From sequence record OR062946.1: a stretch of DNA of 64,000 nt. The stretch is one strand, 5' to 3'. The stretch is from Escherichia phage 310Ecol104PP. Below, one piece after another: positions 2,895 through 64,000 of the stretch (positions within the stretch are counted from its first letter, which is position 1; every line of letters starts with the position of its first letter). The notes below the pieces were generated by a model, which saw only the letters and a program-made list of their open reading frames with translations, searched no databases and had not been told where the DNA came from. The position numbers and the translations under genes are program-made.

Positions 2895-4069
2895 TGAGTA
2901 TGTTGCAACGCCCCGGATATCCAAATCTCAGCGTTAAATTATTTGATAGCTACGACGCTTGGAGTAATAATAGATTTGTTGAATTAGCTGCTACTATTAC
3001 CACATTAACTATGCGTGATTCTCTTTATGGCCGAAATGAAGGAATGCTGCAGTTTTATGATTCTAAAAACATCCATACAAAAATGGATGGAAATGAAATA
3101 ATTCAGATTTCTGTAGCTAATGCAAATGATATTAATAATGTTAAAACACGAATTTATGGATGTAAGCATTTTTCCGTGTCAGTAGATTCAAAAGGTGATA
3201 ACATCATTGCTATTGAATTGGGAACTATTCATTCTATAGAAAATCTTAAATTTGGTAGACCATTTTTCCCTGATGCAGGTGAATCTATAAAAGAAATGCT
3301 TGGTGTCATTTATCAGGATCGCACATTATTAACTCCAGCAATAAATGCTATAAATGCTTATGTTCCTGATATTCCATGGACTAGCACATTTGAAAACTAT
3401 TTGTCATATGTAAGAGAAGTTGCTCTAGCTGTAGGAAGCGACAAATTTGTATTTGTATGGCAAGACATCATGGGAGTTAACATGATGGACTATGATATGA
3501 TGATAAATCAAGAACCATATCCAATGATTGTCGGTGAGCCATCTTTAATAGGTCAATTCATCCAAGAATTAAAATACCCATTAGCATATGATTTTGTTTG
3601 GTTGACTAAATCGAATCCTCACAAACGCGACCCAATGAAAAATGCTACTATCTATGCTCATTCATTTTTAGATTCTTCATTGCCAATGATTACTACAGGA
3701 AAGGGTGAAAACTCTATTGTAGTGTCAAGGTCAGGTGCTTATTCTGAAATGACTTATAGGAATGGATATGAAGAAGCTATTCGTCTTCAAACTATGGCAC
3801 AATATGACGGTTATGCTAAATGTTCTACTGTCGGTAATTTTAACTTGACTCCTGGCGTTAAAATTATTTTTAATGATAGTAAAAACCAATTTAAAACAGA
3901 ATTTTACGTTGATGAAGTTATCCATGAATTATCCAATAATAATTCAGTAACTCATCTATATATGTTCACTAATGCAACGAAACTGGAAACAATAGACCCA
4001 GTTAAGGTTAAAAATGAATTTAAATCTGATACTACCACTGAAGAAAGTAGTTCTTCCAATAAGCAATAA
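2894..4069 (+). CDS. 27: baseplate hub protein gp27
   Basis: 391-aa ORF, size and synteny match T4 gp27. Confidence 0.9.
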
Positions 4070-4547: not shown

Positions 4548-6316
4548 AAAAGCCACAAGAAATGCAAACGATGCGTAGAAAAGTTATTTCAGATAATAAA
4601 CCAACACAGGAAGCGGCTAAATCCGCTTCTAACACTTTATCTGGACTTAACGATATATCTACGAAATTGGATGATGCTCAAGCTGCTTCTGAGTTAATTG
4701 CTCAAACTGTCGAAGAAAAATCGAATGAAATAATTGGAGCAATTGACAACGTAGAAAGCGCAGTGAGTGATACTACTGCTGGTTCTGAGTTAATTGCTGA
4801 AACCGTTGAAATTGGCAATAATATTAATAAAGAAATCGGTGAATCACTCGGGAGCAAATTAGATAAATTAACAAGTTTACTAGAGCAAAAAATTCAGACA
4901 GCTGGAATTCAACAAACAGGAACTAGTTTAGCCACGGTTGAAAGCGCTATTCCTGTTAAAGTTGTTGAGGACGATACAGCTGAATCTGTGGGTCCTTTAT
5001 TACCGGCTCCTGAAGCAGTTAATAATGATCCTGATGCTGATTTTTTCCCTACCCCTCAGCCAGTCGAACCTAAACAAGAATCGCCAGAAGAAAAACAGAA
5101 AAAAGACGCATTTAACTTAAAATTATCTCAAGCTTTAGATAAATTAACAAAGACTGTTGATTTCGGATTTAAGAAATCTATTTCAATTACTGATAAAATA
5201 TCAAGCATGCTATTTAAGTATACCGTCAGTGCTGCTATTGAAGCTGCTAAAATGACTGCAATGATATTGGCTGTTGTTGTTGGAATAGATCTACTGATGG
5301 TTCACTTTAAATATTGGTCAGATAAATTTTCAAAAGCCTGGGATTTATATAGTACTGATTTTACTAAATTCTCTAGCGAAACCGGAACATGGGGTCCTTT
5401 ATTACAGAGCATCTTTGATTCTATTGATAAAATTAAACAACTTTGGGAAGCGGGAGATTGGGGTGGATTGACAACAGCTATCATAGAAGGACTTGGAAGT
5501 GTTCTTTTTAATTTAGGAGAGCTTATTCAATTAGGTATGGCTAAATTATCTGCAGCAATTCTTCGAGTCATTCCTGGTATGAAGGATACTGCTGATGAAG
5601 TAGAAGGAAGAGCATTGGAAAATTTCCAAAATTCTACTGGAGCATCTCTCAATAAAGAAGACCAAGAAAAAGTTGCAAATTATCAAGATAAACGAATGAA
5701 CGGAGACCTTGGTCCGATAGCAAAAGGATTAGATAAAATTGCTAATTGGAAAACTCGTGCATCTAATTGGATTCGCGGTGTTGATAATAAAGAAGCACTA
5801 ACTACCGACGAAGAACGTGCAGCAGAAGAAGAAAAATTAAAGCAGCTTTCACCTGAAGAAAGAAAAAATGCTTTAATGAAGGCTAATGAAGCACGTGCCG
5901 CGATGATTCGTTTTGAAAAATATGCTGATTCAGCTGATATGAGTAAAGACTCAACGGTTAAATCTGTTGAATCTGCCTATGAAGACCTTAAAAAACGGAT
6001 GGATGACCCGGATTTAAACAATTCACCGGCAGTTAAAAAAGAACTTGCTGCTAGATTTTCTAAAATTGATGCTACTTATCAAGAGCTCAAGAAAAATCAG
6101 CCTAATGCCAAACCTGAAACTTCTGCTAAATCGCCAGAAGCGAAACAGGTCCAGGTTATTGAAAAGAACAAAGCACAGCAAGCTCCTGTTCAGCAAGCAT
6201 CTCCTTCAATCAATAATACTAATAATGTTGTTAAGAAAAATACTGTCGTTCATAATATGACACCTGTAACAAGCACAACTGCTCCTGGTGTATTTGATGC
6301 GACTGGAGTTAATTAA
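4544..6316 (+). CDS. 29: baseplate hub / tail-length determining protein gp29
   Basis: 590-aa ORF with internal repeats (AASELIAQTVE.. / AGSELIAETVE..); ATGA overlap with gene 28. Confidence 0.9.
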   Translation: MKKPQEMQTMRRKVISDNKPTQEAAKSASNTLSGLNDISTKLDDAQAASELIAQTVEEKSNEIIGAIDNVESAVSDTTAGSELIAETVEIGNNINKEIGESLGSKLDKLTSLLEQKIQTAGIQQTGTSLATVESAIPVKVVEDDTAESVGPLLPAPEAVNNDPDADFFPTPQPVEPKQESPEEKQKKDAFNLKLSQALDKLTKTVDFGFKKSISITDKISSMLFKYTVSAAIEAAKMTAMILAVVVGIDLLMVHFKYWSDKFSKAWDLYSTDFTKFSSETGTWGPLLQSIFDSIDKIKQLWEAGDWGGLTTAIIEGLGSVLFNLGELIQLGMAKLSAAILRVIPGMKDTADEVEGRALENFQNSTGASLNKEDQEKVANYQDKRMNGDLGPIAKGLDKIANWKTRASNWIRGVDNKEALTTDEERAAEEEKLKQLSPEERKNALMKANEARAAMIRFEKYADSADMSKDSTVKSVESAYEDLKKRMDDPDLNNSPAVKKELAARFSKIDATYQELKKNQPNAKPETSAKSPEAKQVQVIEKNKAQQAPVQQASPSINNTNNVVKKNTVVHNMTPVTSTTAPGVFDATGVN

Positions 6317-6324
6317 GGAATAAT

Positions 6325-7419
6325 ATGGCAATTGTTAAAGAAATAACTACTGATTTAATTAAAAAGTCCGGTGAGAAAATTTCAGCCGGACAGAGCACTA
6401 AATCAGAAGTAGTAACTAAAACATACACTGCCCAGTTTCCAACTGGGCGTGCTAGTGGTAATGACACTACAGGGGACTTCCAGGTAACAGATCTATATAA
6501 GAATGGATTATTATTTACTGCATACAATATGTCATCTAGGGATTCTGGAAGTCTTAGATCGATGAGATCTAACTACTCTTCTTCATCTTCGAGTATTTTA
6601 AGTACAGCTAGAAACACTATTAGTAGTACAGTATCAAAACTATCAAATGGATTAATATCAAATAATAATTCAGGAACAATAAGTAAAGCTCCTGTGGCAA
6701 ATATTCTTTTGCCGAGATCTAAATCTGACGTTGATACATCATCACATAGATTTAATGATGTTCAAGAAAGTCTTATCAGCAGAGGCGGAGGTACTGCTAC
6801 TGGTGTGCTAAGTAATATTGCTTCAACTGCAGTATTTGGAGCACTGGAAAGTATAACACAAGGTATAATGGCTGATAATAATGAACAAATATACACTACG
6901 GCTCGAAGTATGTATGGTGGTGCTGAAAATAGAACTAAAGTGTTTACTTGGGATTTGACTCCACGTTCAACAGAAGATTTAATGGCTATTATTAATATCT
7001 ATCAATATTTTAACTATTTTTCTTATGGTGAAACTGGTAAATCTCAATATGCTGCTGAAATAAAGGGGTATTTAGATGATTGGTATCGTTCTACGTTAAT
7101 TGAACCTTTATCTCCGGAAGACGCAGCTAAAAATAAAACACTATTTGAGAAAATGACATCGAGTTTAACTAACGTTCTAGTAGTTTCAAACCCGACAATT
7201 TGGATGGTGAAAAACTTTGGTGCAACATCTAAGTTTGATGGAAAAACGGAAATATTTGGCCCATGCCAAATACAGAGCATCAGATTTGATAAAACACCTA
7301 ATGGTAACTTTAACGGATTAGCTATTGCTCCAAACCTCCCTAGTACATTTACTCTTGAGATTACTATGAGAGAAATTATTACGTTAAACCGTGCTTCTTT
7401 ATATGCGGGGACTTTTTAA
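6325..7419 (+). CDS. 48: baseplate tail-tube junction protein gp48
   Basis: 364-aa ORF, size and order 29-48-54 match T4. Confidence 0.9.
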   Translation: MAIVKEITTDLIKKSGEKISAGQSTKSEVVTKTYTAQFPTGRASGNDTTGDFQVTDLYKNGLLFTAYNMSSRDSGSLRSMRSNYSSSSSSILSTARNTISSTVSKLSNGLISNNNSGTISKAPVANILLPRSKSDVDTSSHRFNDVQESLISRGGGTATGVLSNIASTAVFGALESITQGIMADNNEQIYTTARSMYGGAENRTKVFTWDLTPRSTEDLMAIINIYQYFNYFSYGETGKSQYAAEIKGYLDDWYRSTLIEPLSPEDAAKNKTLFEKMTSSLTNVLVVSNPTIWMVKNFGATSKFDGKTEIFGPCQIQSIRFDKTPNGNFNGLAIAPNLPSTFTLEITMREIITLNRASLYAGTF

Positions 7420-36408: not shown

Positions 36409-36470
36409 ATGAACCTCGTTCAATTAGTGAGATTTCTATTATATACCATCCAAATCTTAAAGTAAACAAG

Positions 36471-58604: not shown

Positions 58605-58639
58605 ATTATACCACATCCTTGTGGTATGGTAAAGTAAAC
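58605..58639 (-). promoter_or_regulatory. candidate early promoter upstream of rIIA.1
   Basis: TTTACC, 17 nt, TATAAT on the minus strand, with GTTTAC immediately upstream. Confidence 0.35.
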
Positions 58640-60459
58640 TACTGGCTCATCCATTCTTTACGAAGGTCAGCATTATCTCCCATGAGCATTTCAAAAAGCT
58701 CTTTCCAGTTCTCAGGAAGTTTAACAACATCATATACTGGGTTTTGAATCATCTCACGATATTCAGATTTTTCCAAAGAGCCAAGTCCCTTAATATAACG
58801 GATGCTATGTTTAGGTAGAGCATCCTTGGCACTCTCATATTCAGCGACTGTATAAAACCATTCTTGTTTTTTACCGACCTGAGCGATGATTACAGGAGTT
58901 TTGACAAAGCGAATTCGTCCTTGCTCAAACAATTCTGGCCAATTACTAAAAAATCCGAGCAGAGAAGGATAAATGCTTCCTAGACCATCATGGTCAGCAT
59001 CGGTCATAATAGCAATATTATGATAATTCAAGTTTTCAGCCTTTTCACCAAGAACTAATCCAGTGATTGCGCAAATGTCAAACAGTTCTTTGTTTTTAAG
59101 CATATCGGCATATGACATACCCCAGCTATTAAGAACTTTACCACGTAATGGATAACCACCATGAAGTTCTTTATCACGAACATCAATAAGATATCCGATA
59201 GCAGAATCACCCTCAGTCAAGAAAAGAGTAGTATCAGCATCTTTACCACAAAGATTCGCTTTAATATGTTTATGAACCTTAGCTTTAGAAGCCTTTTTAG
59301 CTGCTTTAGTTTCTGCTGCTTTTTCTGCCGCCAATTTACGAGCCAAAGCAGCTTCAATAATCGGCATCAAAATTGCTTCATTATTTAGAATAGCACGTGA
59401 AATCTTTTTAGCATCAAGTTGAATATGACTACGAATTTCGCCAAATGGAGAAGTCAAACGCTCTTTAGTTTGAGAATCAAATCGCATGTTTTTCATATCA
59501 CGAACAAACATGACGATAGTCAAACATTCTTTAACGCGTGCTTTAGTTACATCAATTTTGAACTTACGTTTGATTTGTGGAATAAGGTCTTCACAAATAT
59601 CATCCATAACACAGTCAATGTGATGGCCACCATTCTTAGTGTGAATGTTATTCACGTAAGTTAATTGACGAAATCCATCCGGTGAACGACCAACCGCAAT
59701 AGAACAATTTTCTTGTTCTTGAACAATAGCATGCTCATCATACTGTCGTGCATATTTCTTAAAATTGCCCTGAACTTTTTTACCATTAAAGGTAAATTGA
59801 ATATCAGGATAAACAACAGCAAGTGTCTGGAGACGATCCAGTGTAATGTCAAGATAAACTTGGGACAGCTCATTAGTTTCAAATGACATAAAATCAGGAA
59901 TGAAAGTAACACGAGTTCCTTTCCATTTTCCAGGAATATCTTCCCATGATTTATTTTCCATGCCATTTGAGCAACGAACTACAATATTATTTTGACCATC
60001 GCCAGTTTCACCGACAAACATCACAGAAAAAATGTTAGTTAAACTAGAACCAACACCATTCATACCACCGGTGACACGTTCTTTATCATCACCAAAGTTA
60101 CCACCCGCTTTTGGAATAGTCCAAGCAGCAACTGGACCAGGAATTTCTTCACCGGTAGGTGTTTTAACCATCGCTTGTGGAATACCGCGACCGTTATCTT
60201 CAACTGTTACTTGATTGTTTTTAATAGTAACATTAATTTTATTTGCGAATTTAAACTTAGTACGAATACCTTCATCTACTGAGTTATCGATAATTTCATC
60301 AATAAGCTTAACAAGACCAGGTACATACTGAACACTTTCCCATTTACCAAACAGAAAGCGCTCATGCATTTCATTAGCAGAAGAGCCAATATACATGCCG
60401 CTACGCTTTTTGATATGTTCAATATCGCTCAGAATTTTAATTTCATTCTTAATCATCAC
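58639..60459 (-). CDS. 39: DNA topoisomerase II large subunit gp39, contiguous (includes the region split off as gene 60 in T4)
   Basis: 606-aa ORF with GHKL ATPase motif VEDNGRGIP and Toprim motifs LTEGDSA and MTDADHDG. Confidence 0.9.
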   Translation of the reverse strand: MMIKNEIKILSDIEHIKKRSGMYIGSSANEMHERFLFGKWESVQYVPGLVKLIDEIIDNSVDEGIRTKFKFANKINVTIKNNQVTVEDNGRGIPQAMVKTPTGEEIPGPVAAWTIPKAGGNFGDDKERVTGGMNGVGSSLTNIFSVMFVGETGDGQNNIVVRCSNGMENKSWEDIPGKWKGTRVTFIPDFMSFETNELSQVYLDITLDRLQTLAVVYPDIQFTFNGKKVQGNFKKYARQYDEHAIVQEQENCSIAVGRSPDGFRQLTYVNNIHTKNGGHHIDCVMDDICEDLIPQIKRKFKIDVTKARVKECLTIVMFVRDMKNMRFDSQTKERLTSPFGEIRSHIQLDAKKISRAILNNEAILMPIIEAALARKLAAEKAAETKAAKKASKAKVHKHIKANLCGKDADTTLFLTEGDSAIGYLIDVRDKELHGGYPLRGKVLNSWGMSYADMLKNKELFDICAITGLVLGEKAENLNYHNIAIMTDADHDGLGSIYPSLLGFFSNWPELFEQGRIRFVKTPVIIAQVGKKQEWFYTVAEYESAKDALPKHSIRYIKGLGSLEKSEYREMIQNPVYDVVKLPENWKELFEMLMGDNADLRKEWMSQ

Positions 60460-60508
60460 TTATCCTCGTTTGGTTTCGGGAATATTATACTCCGGTAATC
60501 ATAAAGCT

Positions 60509-60526
60509 AAAGGCCCGAAGGCCTTT
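60509..60526. terminator. C(UUCG)G hairpin upstream of gene 39
   Basis: AAAGGCC-cgaa-GGCCTTT, same sequence as the hairpin at 12955-12972. Confidence 0.5.
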
Positions 60527-60795
60527 TATTTAAAACGGATAGTCGAATCCTTGAAGAATAGACCAGAACATACTGTTCCTTCTACTTTCTGCCCAGTAGG
60601 TCCAACAGCACGAAATCCAGTGTGTTGGAAATCATTTTCAGAGCAACCGAACCAGTTATATCCAGTGATTTCAATATTAGTAAAACCGCTTGAAGATAAA
60701 ACTTTGGTTGCATTATCAGCATCAGTACATCCTACTAAAGATACTGCTAATACTAATGCTGCGATAGAACGATTAACATATTTCATAATTTTCAC
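60526..60795 (-). CDS. predicted lipoprotein (89 aa)
   Basis: Signal peptide with lipobox LVGC. Confidence 0.55.
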   Translation of the reverse strand: MKIMKYVNRSIAALVLAVSLVGCTDADNATKVLSSSGFTNIEITGYNWFGCSENDFQHTGFRAVGPTGQKVEGTVCSGLFFKDSTIRFK

Positions 60796-61163
60796 TTAAA
60801 TTTAATGGCTTGAAGGAGACTAATAATTCTTAAACGGCTTCTTTCATCTTTAACTGTAAAAGAAAGAGGGTCGCCAGATTTCATAGTAATAGTGCATTCA
60901 AAATCAAAATCTTCTGTGACTTCTTCGAAGAAGTCAAATTCTTCATCATAAATTAGAACACTACTTTGCAGACTGTGGAGAGTTTTTCCAGCATTTCCAG
61001 ATGCTGTACCAATCATTGTAACATTATGACCTTTCATATCTTCAACGATAAATTCGTTTGTCAATATTACAGCATTAATAGAACTATTCCTATTACTAAC
61101 AGAAAGTAGAAATTTCTGTTCTTCACCTTCACGAATACGATATTTCTTACCAATTTTAAACAT
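60792..61163 (-). CDS. hypothetical 123-aa protein
   Basis: ORF with ATGA overlap to the lipoprotein gene. Confidence 0.45.
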   Translation of the reverse strand: MFKIGKKYRIREGEEQKFLLSVSNRNSSINAVILTNEFIVEDMKGHNVTMIGTASGNAGKTLHSLQSSVLIYDEEFDFFEEVTEDFDFECTITMKSGDPLSFTVKDERSRLRIISLLQAIKFK

Positions 61164-61165
61164 AA

Positions 61166-61342
61166 TTACCCTTTAAGTAAGTCGTAAAAACCACCATTCA
61201 CATGCTTAGGAGCAGAAGGCCGACGAGTAGACAGACGATGACATTTAGGGCAAACATCATTTTCTCGTTCAGAAATCTTTTTAATTTTTTCATATTCATG
61301 CCCGCAATCTTCGGATTGGCATTTATAATCATACATTGGCAT
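61166..61342 (-). CDS. zinc-ribbon protein (58 aa, FmdB-like)
   Basis: Manual translation MPMYDYKCQSEDCGHEYEKIKKISERENDVCPKCHRL…; CxxC…CPxC; below the ORF-track cutoff. Confidence 0.5.
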   Translation of the reverse strand: MPMYDYKCQSEDCGHEYEKIKKISERENDVCPKCHRLSTRRPSAPKHVNGGFYDLLKG

Positions 61343-61344
61343 AA

Positions 61345-61770
61345 TTATTCCTTAAAATGTGCTTTCAACATCTGATACAAGGACCATGCATGTTCATTAT
61401 TTTCAATAGTAACTTTCATGACCGGGAATTCTGTGAAATCTTCTATTTGTTCTTGCTCTTTCTCTTCCTGCTCTTGCTCTTCGGCTGCCTGGTATGGATT
61501 TTCCACTTCATCAAAGAACACAGCTTCGCTCGTTGAAAGCCAGATAAAATCTTCATCCAAAATATCTTTACCAGAAGATAACGCCAATTTTCCACTAGAT
61601 GTCACAAGTTTAGTAGGACGACCAAGATAGTCAATATCTGTAACTCTAAAAGGTTCCATACCAAGACGACGTGCATAAATTCCGTTTTCAGTATGGTCCT
61701 TGATAAAATCTTCTTGAGCTTGTTTATTTTTAAATTGATACCATTTATTAACTTCAAATTTAATAGCCAT
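61345..61770 (-). CDS. hypothetical 141-aa protein with acidic Glu/Gln-rich linker (possibly goF by size and position)
   Basis: ORF; naming is positional memory only. Confidence 0.4.
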
Positions 61771-61985
61771 TAATAAGTTTCCTTCCAGTAAGTTGTGCCA
61801 TCTTCAGTAATTTCACGAAATACACCGTAAATTGGTTGTTTATCACCAACCTTTTCATACACATAAACCGAAGTCAAGTGAGTAAACTTAACGGTATGTT
61901 CTTTTTGAACTACTACCAAATCTGGATCGAATAGTACATCTTCAAATTCGTCATTAGTGCAATTCTGAACAATTTTACGTTTCAT
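61770..61985 (-). CDS. hypothetical 71-aa protein (possibly cef by size and position)
   Basis: ORF; naming is positional memory only. Confidence 0.35.
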
Positions 61986-61998
61986 TACAATTTCCTCA

Positions 61999-62280
61999 TT
62001 AATTGAACAGTGGAGCGATGCGTTTCAGAAGAGTAGCAGCACCTTTAGCGAATTTTACATCATGAAAAACAGTTTCTTCTTCCGTTACAACACGAGCTTT
62101 AATGTTTTCACAATCCCAATTTTTGCGAACAATCTTCAAAAGCTGCAGTAAATCTTTACATTCAGCAATATCGATAACACATCCACGAGAATCTTCCATT
62201 ATCGCACGATAACCGTAAGCCATACCATAATCATTGAAAGATTGCTCGATGATAATTAAATTTTCCATTTTATTCTCCAA
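61999..62280 (-). CDS. hypothetical 93-aa protein
   Basis: ORF preceded by a 13-bp inverted repeat and promoter-like sequence. Confidence 0.45.
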   Translation of the reverse strand: MENKMENLIIIEQSFNDYGMAYGYRAIMEDSRGCVIDIAECKDLLQLLKIVRKNWDCENIKARVVTEEETVFHDVKFAKGAATLLKRIAPLFN

Positions 62281-62365
62281 GTTGTTTTCTGTATCAGTAG
62301 TTGATATTGATATAGTACCATAATCAACTACTGATGTATATAGTTTTATGAAAAAATTTTAAACT

Positions 62366-62857
62366 TTATGCATAGCGAGCTTTGCTATAGTGTTTAATCC
62401 AACTTTCAGGAATGACTTTGTATGTTCCTAAAAATACCGCGTTGTATAACTTAACGCCATCTTCTACCCATTGATCAGTAATGTATGCACACATAGCGCG
62501 AGTACGGTTAACAACACCTTCCTCACCTTCAGTAAATTCAAACTCATAAGGAGCAACGAACTTAATAGCCTGACCGAGTTTCCACTTAAAGTCTACACCT
62601 ACATGCGAAGTATCAATCGTTTCAATTCCTTTAGCAGGAACAGCTTTCAAAAACGCAGATTCAAGAAATTTCGCACGAACATAGCCAAACTGAGGTTTAG
62701 ACTTTCCATCTTTAGGAATGATACGCACTTTTACTTCAGAATCTTCATCTTTAACACCGTGTTTAAGCTGAATGCTTACAACTTCGACCAATTTTCCTGC
62801 CGCTTTAGAGCGGGATTTATCAGATACACGAGCTAATTCACCAATATTAATAATCAT
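62366..62857 (-). CDS. hypothetical 163-aa protein (possibly MotB), paralog of the next ORF
   Basis: C-terminal motif ITDQWVEDGVKLYNAVFLGTYKVIP shared with the 145-aa ORF. Confidence 0.45.
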   Translation of the reverse strand: MIINIGELARVSDKSRSKAAGKLVEVVSIQLKHGVKDEDSEVKVRIIPKDGKSKPQFGYVRAKFLESAFLKAVPAKGIETIDTSHVGVDFKWKLGQAIKFVAPYEFEFTEGEEGVVNRTRAMCAYITDQWVEDGVKLYNAVFLGTYKVIPESWIKHYSKARYA

Positions 62858-62930
62858 AGTTATCTCTCACTTGTTAAAAAGATTTTATACTCCACGGGAC
62901 CATTATACTCTGGTCCCAAGAGTTTGTAAA

Positions 62931-63368
62931 CTAGCTTACACGAACATTAATCACTGCGCTGCGAGGAACTACAGAGTACTCTCCAGCATGAACTACGTTC
63001 AGAAGTTCAACACCATCTTCAATCCACTGATCAGTCACCCATCCACCCACAGGATTCGCGAATGGACGACGAATATAAACTGCCTTACACAGTAGATCAG
63101 TTGGATCTTCAGGTTTTTCAATTTCTGTCAATAGACTAAAATCTTTTTCATAAATAATAAGCGGTGATACCATTCCATAATAGTTTCTAATTTCAATATA
63201 CATCATACCGATAAGAATTCCGCTATTAACACTAATAACAGTAAAAGGATATCCGCCAGTTAAACCAAGAAGTTCACAAAACTTATTATGAGCTGTATTA
63301 GACAGTACCGAAAAATTCTTAATTTCATCAAATTTTTTCAATTGATAAACAGCATTATTTTTAATCAT
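62931..63368 (-). CDS. hypothetical 145-aa protein, paralog of the preceding ORF
   Basis: C-terminal motif VTDQWIEDGVELLNVVHAGEYSVVP. Confidence 0.45.
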   Translation of the reverse strand: MIKNNAVYQLKKFDEIKNFSVLSNTAHNKFCELLGLTGGYPFTVISVNSGILIGMMYIEIRNYYGMVSPLIIYEKDFSLLTEIEKPEDPTDLLCKAVYIRRPFANPVGGWVTDQWIEDGVELLNVVHAGEYSVVPRSAVINVRVS

Positions 63369-63378
63369 AATTTTCTCT

Positions 63379-63921
63379 TTAATCTAAGGTAATAAAGCCT
63401 TTTAATTCGGCATGTGACTTGCGGAACATTACTTGATGCCCACCAATGATAACTTTATCTTCAGGTACTTCGTATACAGCGAGATAAAATCCTTTAGAAG
63501 CTAATTCTTCACGCTCTTCTCGTGTGAACCATCTCATCATATCATATTCACTAGCAAAAGCAAAATGATAAAGAGCTATAAACCATCCTGGAATATAGTA
63601 ATCTACGCCTACATATTCTTCTTTCTCAAAATTAGTATTAATTGCTATATTAGCATTTTTAACTAATAGTTTGTCTTCGTGCGGAAGAGGAATTCTTTTA
63701 TTATCATTACTATGATGCATAAAATTAGGTCTGTCATAACCTACGTGTAATAACCACTCTTCGCTCCATGAATCCATTATACTCCTGTACGGCGTTATTT
63801 GAACACAAAGATCTCGACGTATTGTTATAGCATCTTCATAATTAAGAATACTAAATGATGATTCAACACGATAAATTTTCATTTTATTATCCTCAGTAGC
63901 TATGGTGTTATAATACCACAA
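63379..63921 (-). CDS. hypothetical 180-aa protein
   Basis: ORF with good coding appearance; no motif recognised. Confidence 0.45.
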   Translation of the reverse strand: MWYYNTIATEDNKMKIYRVESSFSILNYEDAITIRRDLCVQITPYRSIMDSWSEEWLLHVGYDRPNFMHHSNDNKRIPLPHEDKLLVKNANIAINTNFEKEEYVGVDYYIPGWFIALYHFAFASEYDMMRWFTREEREELASKGFYLAVYEVPEDKVIIGGHQVMFRKSHAELKGFITLD

Positions 63922-64000
63922 CTAACCGAGGAAGTAAACAACTTTTTATCGTTTTGTTGGAAGAGATAGAGGATCGCACTCTTCCTCTGACGGAGCATCT

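Follow-up and report, generated by a model that had tools for sequence, protein, structure and literature searches.

Positions 60526–63921 of a 64,000-nucleotide stretch of DNA from Escherichia phage 310Ecol104PP (OR062946.1), referred to below as the window, hold nine open reading frames (ORFs), all on the minus strand. By sequence comparison, the window is Tequatrovirus DNA, and this block is the 39.1–motB.2 interval of phage T4, which lies between dexA and the topoisomerase gene 39. We conclude with high confidence that the block is a conserved but mosaic early accessory region of T-even phages that encodes small, individually dispensable host-takeover factors. It is the textbook hyperplastic early region of T4, which is dispensable. 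The block is already known: each gene has a name or a PHROG assignment, and two genes have published functions.

Conservation and Identity of the Block

A megablast search with positions 60400–64000 matched 665 phage records. The top match, Escherichia phage AugustSocin (a Tequatrovirus), is 99.6% identical over the full length (3.6 kb), and 390 phage records match over at least 80% of the block. Read leftward, the gene order is motB.2, motB.1, motB, an 89-amino-acid (aa) ORF, cef, goF, 39.2, a 123-aa ORF, and 39.1 (Table 1). Comparison of annotations shows gene-for-gene synteny with T4, T4T, T6, and T2, and the annotation of AugustSocin agrees. A comparison with the T4 39.1–motB interval had been suggested as a check in a first-pass annotation made from the window's sequence; by annotation, it gives a one-to-one correspondence. 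The ORFs listed in that annotation are all real, and each lies on the minus strand where it was placed, but goF, cef, the 89/93-aa ORF, and motB.2 went unmentioned within the same range, and the named T4 genes were not recognized. The right-hand end that it gave, 63921, is a TTG codon upstream of the real motB.2 start. This codon lies inside a promoter-like element, and a ribosome-binding site and the ATG at 63882 are visible.

GC skew is negative across the whole region, which fits minus-strand coding. Plus-strand ORFs of 134, 121, and 107 aa were considered and rejected as antisense artefacts, since the minus strand is filled by conserved genes and the skew is uniformly negative. One point weighs against our description of the block as early: its timing is read from promoter-like sequences together with knowledge of T4.

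gp39.1 as a Predicted Outer-Membrane Lipoprotein

The last gene in the leftward order, 39.1, encodes what the first-pass annotation described as an 89-aa lipoprotein with the lipobox LVGC. The lipoprotein assignment holds, with a corrected start. The ATG at 60786, which yields 86 aa, is the annotated start in AugustSocin, T4T, T2, and T6; the 89-aa form begins at GTG 60795 and overlaps the stop codon of the upstream ORF. From the ATG, the N-terminus is MKYVNRSIAALVLAVSLVGC followed by TDADN, and it conforms to a PROSITE PS51257-type rule. The n-region, MKYVNR, contains K2 and R6, where the rule calls for K or R among the first 7 residues. An uncharged hydrophobic stretch and the lipobox follow (SIAALVLAVS-LVGC), placing the cysteine at residue 20, where the rule allows 15–35. 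The predicted signal peptide comprises residues 1–19, the predicted lipidated residue, Cys20, is encoded at 60727–60729, and the mature part of 67 aa contains two more conserved cysteines.

This arrangement is retained across the family. The homologue set consists of 50 proteins with 46–97% identity, from contigs that include phage-sized ones of ~165–233 kb; with the query, it contains 51 sequences. A scripted PROSITE-type lipobox rule identifies the signal in 49 of the 51, through 19 different tetrapeptides (LVGC, LAGC, LSGC, VAGC, and others). Retention of the pattern through so many tetrapeptides is a signature of selection that acts on the signal and not on the sequence. The aligned homologues have a nearly invariant lipobox cysteine and threonine after it, together with two further conserved cysteines: Thr occupies position +2 in 46/51 sequences, and the mature part has exactly two cysteines in 46/51. 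Pfam LPAM_1 matches 11 family members, and the UniRef cluster is named "Lipoprotein." In E. coli, the residue after the lipidated cysteine governs Lol-dependent sorting (the +2 rule). The prevalence of Thr at this position therefore predicts Lol-dependent sorting of gp39.1 to the outer membrane, and the two conserved mature cysteines suggest a periplasmic disulfide. Judged from these features, gp39.1 is a convincing lipoprotein whose lipidation is predicted. It is probably an outer-membrane lipoprotein of the early block, a localization that we favor with some reserve.

Searches by structure and profile place gp39.1 among uncharacterized proteins. In the AlphaFold2 (AF2) model, which has a predicted local distance difference test score (pLDDT) of 75, the signal helix is accompanied by one amphipathic helix and an antiparallel sheet of four strands. 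A Foldseek search of this model against the PDB gave no match below E 1.2, a structure search of BFVD returned only uncharacterized phage proteins, and a PDB sequence search gave no match. In NCBIfam, the sole match covers only the signal peptide (bifunctional murein DD-endopeptidase/LD-carboxypeptidase NF008096, 13.5 bits versus a cut-off of 186). Literature searches covering gp39.1, motB.2, and exclusion lipoproteins of T-even phages turned up no work on either gene.

The gene is widespread. A tblastn search finds it in ~1070 phage records that belong to large myoviruses of many genera, with hosts in Escherichia, Klebsiella, Shigella, Enterobacter, Serratia, Yersinia, Citrobacter, Cronobacter, Salmonella, and Edwardsiella, and in one Stenotrophomonas phage. 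The window's gp39.1 is 97.7% identical to that of T2, 96.5% identical to that of T6, and nearly identical to that of T4T; RB69 has no 39.1 at this locus. T2, T4, and T6 use different primary receptors. The near identity of gp39.1 despite these different receptors, the wide range of host genera, and the absence of the gene from RB69 make a conserved envelope target likelier than a variable receptor. In the mechanism that we propose, gp39.1 would leave the cytoplasm through Sec, receive its lipid at Cys20, and lose its signal peptide to signal peptidase II, and the two other conserved cysteines would form a periplasmic disulfide. The mature protein would then bind a conserved envelope component of Enterobacterales rather than the phage's own variable receptor. 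It counts against this mechanism that lipidation, localization, and any target of gp39.1 are inferred. gp39.1 may represent a widespread, uncharacterized class of outer-membrane lipoproteins that remodel or protect a conserved Enterobacterales envelope machine during infection, a tentative idea that we consider rather unlikely. If such a class exists, it has been overlooked partly because the RefSeq record of T4 shows the gene without its signal peptide.

The first-pass annotation had suggested envelope modification such as superinfection exclusion. An envelope role is possible for a protein that is probably an outer-membrane lipoprotein of the early block, but the receptor-blocking form of the idea is disfavored. 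In that form, gp39.1 would be a superinfection-exclusion lipoprotein of the T5 Llp or phi80 Cor type, made early, placed in the outer membrane, and plugging the phage's own receptor against adsorption or injection. As outlined in bioRxiv 10.64898/2026.03.26.714494, T5 Llp is a small FhuA-binding lipoprotein located in the inner leaflet of the outer membrane. In size and type, gp39.1 is analogous to it. Like T5 Llp and lambdoid Cor, gp39.1 is a small phage-encoded protein with the predicted features of an early lipoprotein (a 67-aa mature part, outer-membrane sorting, and a probable disulfide), and its gene sits in an early-type transcription unit. It has no detected relation to either in sequence or fold: searches of Pfam, NCBIfam, PHROG, PDB sequences, and structures found no link to Llp or Cor, and the model has no significant structural match to Llp or any solved chain. 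A receptor plug would also be expected to follow receptor choice, and the identity among T2, T6, and T4T shows no such co-variation; retention of the gene in phages of Klebsiella, Serratia, Enterobacter, and Edwardsiella and its absence from the RB69 locus likewise argue against a plug. In T4, moreover, exclusion is already attributed to Imm and Sp. We consider a function of this type improbable. It is also unlikely, though somewhat easier to entertain, that gp39.1 is a periplasmic inhibitor or immunity-type lipoprotein that binds and neutralizes a conserved enzyme of the envelope or a toxin (candidates include a peptidase, a murein hydrolase, and an incoming lysozyme or bacteriocin) and thereby protects the envelope until lysis.

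A Shared C-Terminal Module in MotB and MotB.1

The 163-aa and 145-aa products of motB and motB.1 were described in the first-pass annotation as a paralogous pair with the C-terminal motif TDQW[VI]EDGV. The similarity of the motif is significant on alignment; the proteins share a module and are not full-length paralogues. The segments AYITDQWVEDGVKLYNAVFLGTYKVIPES of the 163-aa protein and GWVTDQWIEDGVELLNVVHAGEYSVVPRS of the 145-aa protein have 16/29 identical residues (BLASTP E 5e-10), and this is the only cross-match obtained when the nine ORFs are compared with a six-frame translation of the 64-kb window (E ~1e-7). With small family alignments, hhalign gives a probability of 97.6% and E 4e-12 over 34 columns, matching MotB residues 121–154 (62396–62497) with MotB.1 residues 106–139 (62952–63053). 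The module consensus is TDQW[VI]EDGV-L-N-V--G-Y-V-P-S. Outside this ~34-residue segment, nothing in the two proteins aligns by either BLASTP or hhalign. Profile matches show the same limits. The 163-aa protein matches Pfam motB (PF17613) at 334.8 bits across model positions 1–162, whereas the model finds MotB.1 at residues 104–139 only (32.7 bits, cut-off 25), a full-length match being absent. Against phrog_1671 (MotB), MotB.1 matches over residues 79–141 (E 2.7e-15). The two proteins also differ in charge, MotB being basic (isoelectric point, pI, 9.2) and MotB.1 acidic (pI 5.35).

The relationship between MotB and MotB.1 is already published. T4 MotB is a DNA-binding protein that alters the binding of H-NS to DNA (PMC6070864, PMC7827196). 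A conserved C-terminal domain is common to MotB and MotB.1, their N-terminal domains differ, and the homologues have been sorted into categories by their N-termini (PMC7827196, 2021). The N-terminal domain is predicted to be KOW-like in MotB (PMC7827196) and LSm-like in MotB.1 (PMC12152347). Within this family (PF17613; Patterson-West et al. 2018, 2021; PMC6070864, PMC7827196), the window's 163-aa protein is a full-length MotB and its 145-aa protein belongs to "Category 2" (MotB.1). The shared segment differs in extent, being bounded here to ~34 residues, compared with the predicted "OB-fold CTD" of residues 69–149 in PMC7827196.

A related arrangement is seen in T6 (MH550421), where the motB.1 position (3523–4065) is occupied by a gene for a 180-aa protein with a third, unrelated N-terminal half. 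Its C-terminal ~70 residues are as in MotB.1 and are 62% identical to residues 71–142 of the window's MotB.1. A third N-terminus on the same C-terminus shows swapping of N-terminal domains on a MotB-type module.

On the basis of these alignments, the MotB/MotB.1 relationship is best described as domain shuffling, in which a mobile C-terminal module of ~34 residues appears to be carried on interchangeable, unrelated N-terminal domains, rather than as whole-gene duplication followed by divergence. The duplication model would make the two genes true paralogues whose N-termini diverged for different targets around a common C-terminal effector, the "specificity switching" of the first-pass annotation. 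It accommodates the adjacency of the genes, the significant motif, and the third N-terminal variant of T6, and in PMC7827196 one gene is suggested to be a duplicate of the other. It fits poorly with homology that is detectable over ~34 columns only and with published N-terminal fold classes that differ. Moreover, by its N-terminal domain MotB.1 falls with GoF, Frd.2, and the 123-aa ORF and apart from MotB, the opposite charges make a shared DNA-binding role unlikely, and knock-outs of motB.1 in T4 have no phenotype (PMC12152347). Whole-gene paralogy is thus doubtful, and specificity switching is better seen as domain shuffling, since unrelated N-terminal domains carry the module.

The 123-aa ORF and the GoF/Frd.2/MotB.1 Family

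The 123-aa ORF noted in the first-pass annotation is present at 60792–61163 and has 47 near-identical homologues in T4-like phages. Its profile matches are to phrog_622 (E 2e-28), the same PHROG as goF, to phrog_13003 "goF" (E 3e-8), and to phrog_2333, the MotB.1 family (E 6e-4). goF itself matches phrog_622 (E 2.5e-39) and phrog_13003. A profile of the 123-aa family gives a full-length, collinear match to T4 Frd.2, with E 0.004 among only 8 targets, and Pfam FRD2 scores the ORF at E 0.027 (15.6 bits, below the cut-off of 29). The 123-aa ORF has the layout of the GoF/Frd.2/MotB.1 family, consisting of a beta-rich N-terminal half, an acidic linker, and a C-terminal beta-beta-alpha unit that ends in FK[KE]. 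Kim et al. 2025 (PMC12152347) placed GoF, the MotB.1 N-terminal domain, and Frd.2 in one group with a predicted LSm-like barrel; goF and the MotB.1 N-terminal half are thus already published as members. Being absent from T4, the 123-aa ORF is unnamed in PMC12152347; its membership comes from profiles only. These matches make it likely, though unproven, that the 123-aa ORF belongs to the GoF/Frd.2/MotB.1 LSm-like family.

Several results weigh against this assignment. The link to GoF draws on PHROG profiles and weak hidden Markov model (HMM) scores. BLASTP of the 123-aa ORF against goF found nothing significant, and hhalign with the shallow 123-aa alignment against goF was not significant. The AF2 model of the ORF, computed from 13 sequences that are 91% identical, shows beta strands in the N-terminal half and has a pLDDT of 38, which makes it unfit for fold comparison. 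BLASTP also gave nothing significant for the 123-aa ORF against MotB.1 or for goF against MotB.1. When 1.84 billion representatives were searched exhaustively with HMMER, the 123-aa query had five hits at E ≤ 0.001, of which only three were full-length, including just two relatives below 50% identity; a family with so few distant relatives is narrow. An RNA-related role is possible for GoF, the 123-aa protein, and MotB.1. For GoF and MotB.1, this role is a published prediction, which we extend by inference to the 123-aa protein.

gp39.2, an FmdB-Type Zinc Ribbon

The 58-aa ORF described in the first-pass annotation as a zinc ribbon with a CxxC and a CPxC pair passes curated cut-offs for both Pfam Zn_ribbon_8 (PF09723, 45.7 bits, cut-off 34.4) and TIGR02605 (44.9 bits, cut-off 31.3). 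The cysteine pattern is C8-x4-C13 ... C31-P-K-C34; the CPxC pair was thus right, but the first pair is Cx4C rather than CxxC. As in FmdB-type CxxC_CxxC_SSSS ribbons (PF09723/TIGR02605), four cysteines form two knuckles and the N-terminus contains YxYxC. gp39.2 differs from these ribbons in its Cx4C first knuckle and in a conserved C-terminal tail, SAPKHVNGGFYDLLKG, that is specific to the phage subfamily. The protein is 79% identical to T6 gp39.2 and 93% identical to RB69 ORF006. Its gene has the same place as in T4T, T6, and T2, between goF and 39.1, and its length of 58 aa is that of the T4T protein. By sequence and position, it is the orthologue of T4 39.2/NwgI. T4 39.2 is summarized in PMC5153855, citing Ang and Georgopoulos 2012, as a 58-residue peptide that shifts GroEL toward the open conformation and whose deletion prevents growth on certain groEL mutants. 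GroEL modulation is reported for T4 gp39.2 only and would apply to the window's gp39.2 through orthology. The label "FmdB-like transcriptional regulator" given to 39.2 is not supported, as the sole functional study points to GroEL.

Mosaicism and the T4 Reference Record

The block has the same gene order and strand as in T4 (T4T, HM137666), it too lies between dexA and gene 39, and its proteins are near-identical to those of T4. 39.1 (86 aa) and 39.2 (58 aa) are equal in length to their T4T counterparts, and motB.1 encodes 143 aa in T4T and 145 aa here. The two differ in that the 123-aa ORF005c-like gene and the 89-aa T2_9-like gene are kept in the window and deleted in T4. The first is removed by a clean deletion (NC_000866.4 near 5595–5702), and the second by an internal deletion whose scar consists of the first 4 and last ~58 bases of the gene (NC_000866.4 near 6482–6653). 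T6 has the 123-aa ORF, T2 carries a version truncated to 105 aa, and RB69 has it as ORF005c (42% identity); the 89-aa ORF at 61999–62268 is 98% identical to the T2 ORF T2_9. Other genes of the block are missing elsewhere: motB.1 and motB.2 from T2, the 89-aa ORF from T6, and 39.1 from this locus in RB69. This pattern of presence and absence among T4, T2, T6, and RB69 indicates that the block is a mosaic. Cef differs from T4 Cef at three residues. A further difference from T4 concerns the neighboring gene 39 at 58639–60459, which has the unsplit 39+60 form and encodes a 606-aa topoisomerase subunit; the T4-type 39/60 split, with mobA, 60.1, and the 50-nucleotide translational bypass, is absent from it.

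The RefSeq record of T4 gives a different picture of three of these genes. NC_000866.4 (5398–5839, 7291–7650) carries one extra base each in 39.1, 39.2, and motB.1. The resulting forms are a 65-aa gp39.1 with neither signal peptide nor lipobox, a 45-aa gp39.2, and a 119-aa MotB.1 that is cut inside TDQWIEDGV. In T4T, gp39.1 has 86 aa with the lipobox LIGC, gp39.2 has 58 aa, and MotB.1 has 143 aa and an unbroken motif; across the stretch, a single base separates T4 "wild" (KJ477684) from T4T. A loss of the lipobox in T4, as the RefSeq alignment would imply, was accordingly rejected, because the genes are intact in the resequenced T4T and T4 wild. The monomer mass of 13.8 kDa given for MotB.1 in PMC12152347 is that of the 119-aa form, which suggests that the plasmid experiments in that study probably used truncated MotB.1. 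In the RB69 record (NC_004928, 5370–5570), the 29-aa "ORF012c" is the out-of-frame C-terminal end of motB.1; it has been treated as a separate MotB-related category (PMC7827196). The motB.1 motif of RB69 falls in three different reading frames in this record, implying two insertions or deletions.

Promoters, Hairpins, and Transcription

Transcription of the block would run leftward, starting at early-type promoters in front of motB.2 and motB, and the early transcript would end at the hairpin after 39.1, just before gene 39's own promoter. The exact pattern GTTTAC-N16-18-TATAAT occurs twice in the window, compared with 0.02 expected; the occurrence outside the block is on the minus strand at 36438–36467. 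The hairpin at 60509–60526 is probably the terminator of the early unit, judging from its sequence, and was not flagged by a simple terminator scan. A second hairpin, at 62293–62335, has a fold energy z of −4.7, and 0/200 shuffled sequences folded as well; an RNA processing or stability element and a part of a promoter are both possibilities. A search of Rfam over 60300–64000 matched no RNA family.

Table 1. Genes and candidate regulatory elements of the block, with window coordinates
Feature	Position	Strand	Size or location	Evidence
motB.2	63379–63882	minus	167 aa from ATG (180 aa from TTG 63921)	phrog_1106, E 2e-56; near-identical to T4 MotB.2
motB.1	62931–63368	minus	145 aa, pI 5.35	phrog_2333, E 9e-68
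motB	62366–62857	minus	163 aa, pI 9.2	Pfam motB PF17613, 334.8 bits; near-identical to T4 MotB
unnamed ORF	61999–62268	minus	89 aa (93 aa from TTG 62280)	phrog_3720, E 1e-46
cef (modifier of suppressor tRNAs)	61770–61985	minus	71 aa	Pfam T4_Cef PF24050, 119.7 bits; phrog_1354
goF	61345–61770	minus	141 aa	phrog_622, E 2.5e-39; near-identical to T4 GoF; annotated goF in relatives
39.2 (nwgI)	61166–61342	minus	58 aa, FmdB-type zinc ribbon	PF09723, 45.7 bits
unnamed RB69ORF005c/RB32ORF005c-like ORF	60792–61163	minus	123 aa	phrog_622, E 2e-28
39.1	60526–60786	minus	86 aa (89 aa from GTG 60795)	phrog_902, E 2e-37
promoter-like element, GTTTAC...TATTAT	63910–63939	minus	upstream of motB.2 ATG	identical in T4
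early-promoter-type element, GTTTAC-N17-TATAAT	62902–62931	minus	upstream of motB, overlaps motB.1 stop	11/12 consensus matches; identical in T4
hairpin, perfect 13-bp stem	62293–62335	minus	spacer between motB and 89-aa ORF	identical in T4; no T-run after
GC-rich hairpin, AAAGGCC-TTCG-GGCCTTT	60509–60526	minus	right after 39.1 stop, then T-rich tail	predicted fold; identical in T4
gene 39 promoter-like element, GCTTTA ... TATAAT	60484–60507		just downstream of hairpin 60509–60526	identical in T4

Conclusions

The block matters little for genome annotation, and several of its products can be given roles by comparison with T4. MotB would act as a basic DNA-binding protein that alters H-NS binding, as published for T4, and gp39.2/NwgI as a zinc ribbon that shifts GroEL to its open form, as summarized for the T4 peptide. 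Cef, according to its annotation, would affect phage tRNA suppressor function. If the family assignment of the 123-aa ORF is true, the block contains two interlocking sets of relatives, with the 123-aa protein, GoF, and MotB.1 joined through an N-terminal domain and MotB and MotB.1 joined through the C-terminal module. The commonly used RefSeq T4 record shows neither the lipoprotein character of gp39.1 nor gp39.2 and MotB.1 at full length, with the risk that truncated proteins enter experimental designs. gp39.1 is among the most widely conserved small proteins of the block and is therefore a reasonable candidate for studies of envelope effects; if the proposed class is real, its role could be receptor-independent exclusion, an anti-bacteriocin function, or inhibition of a periplasmic enzyme.

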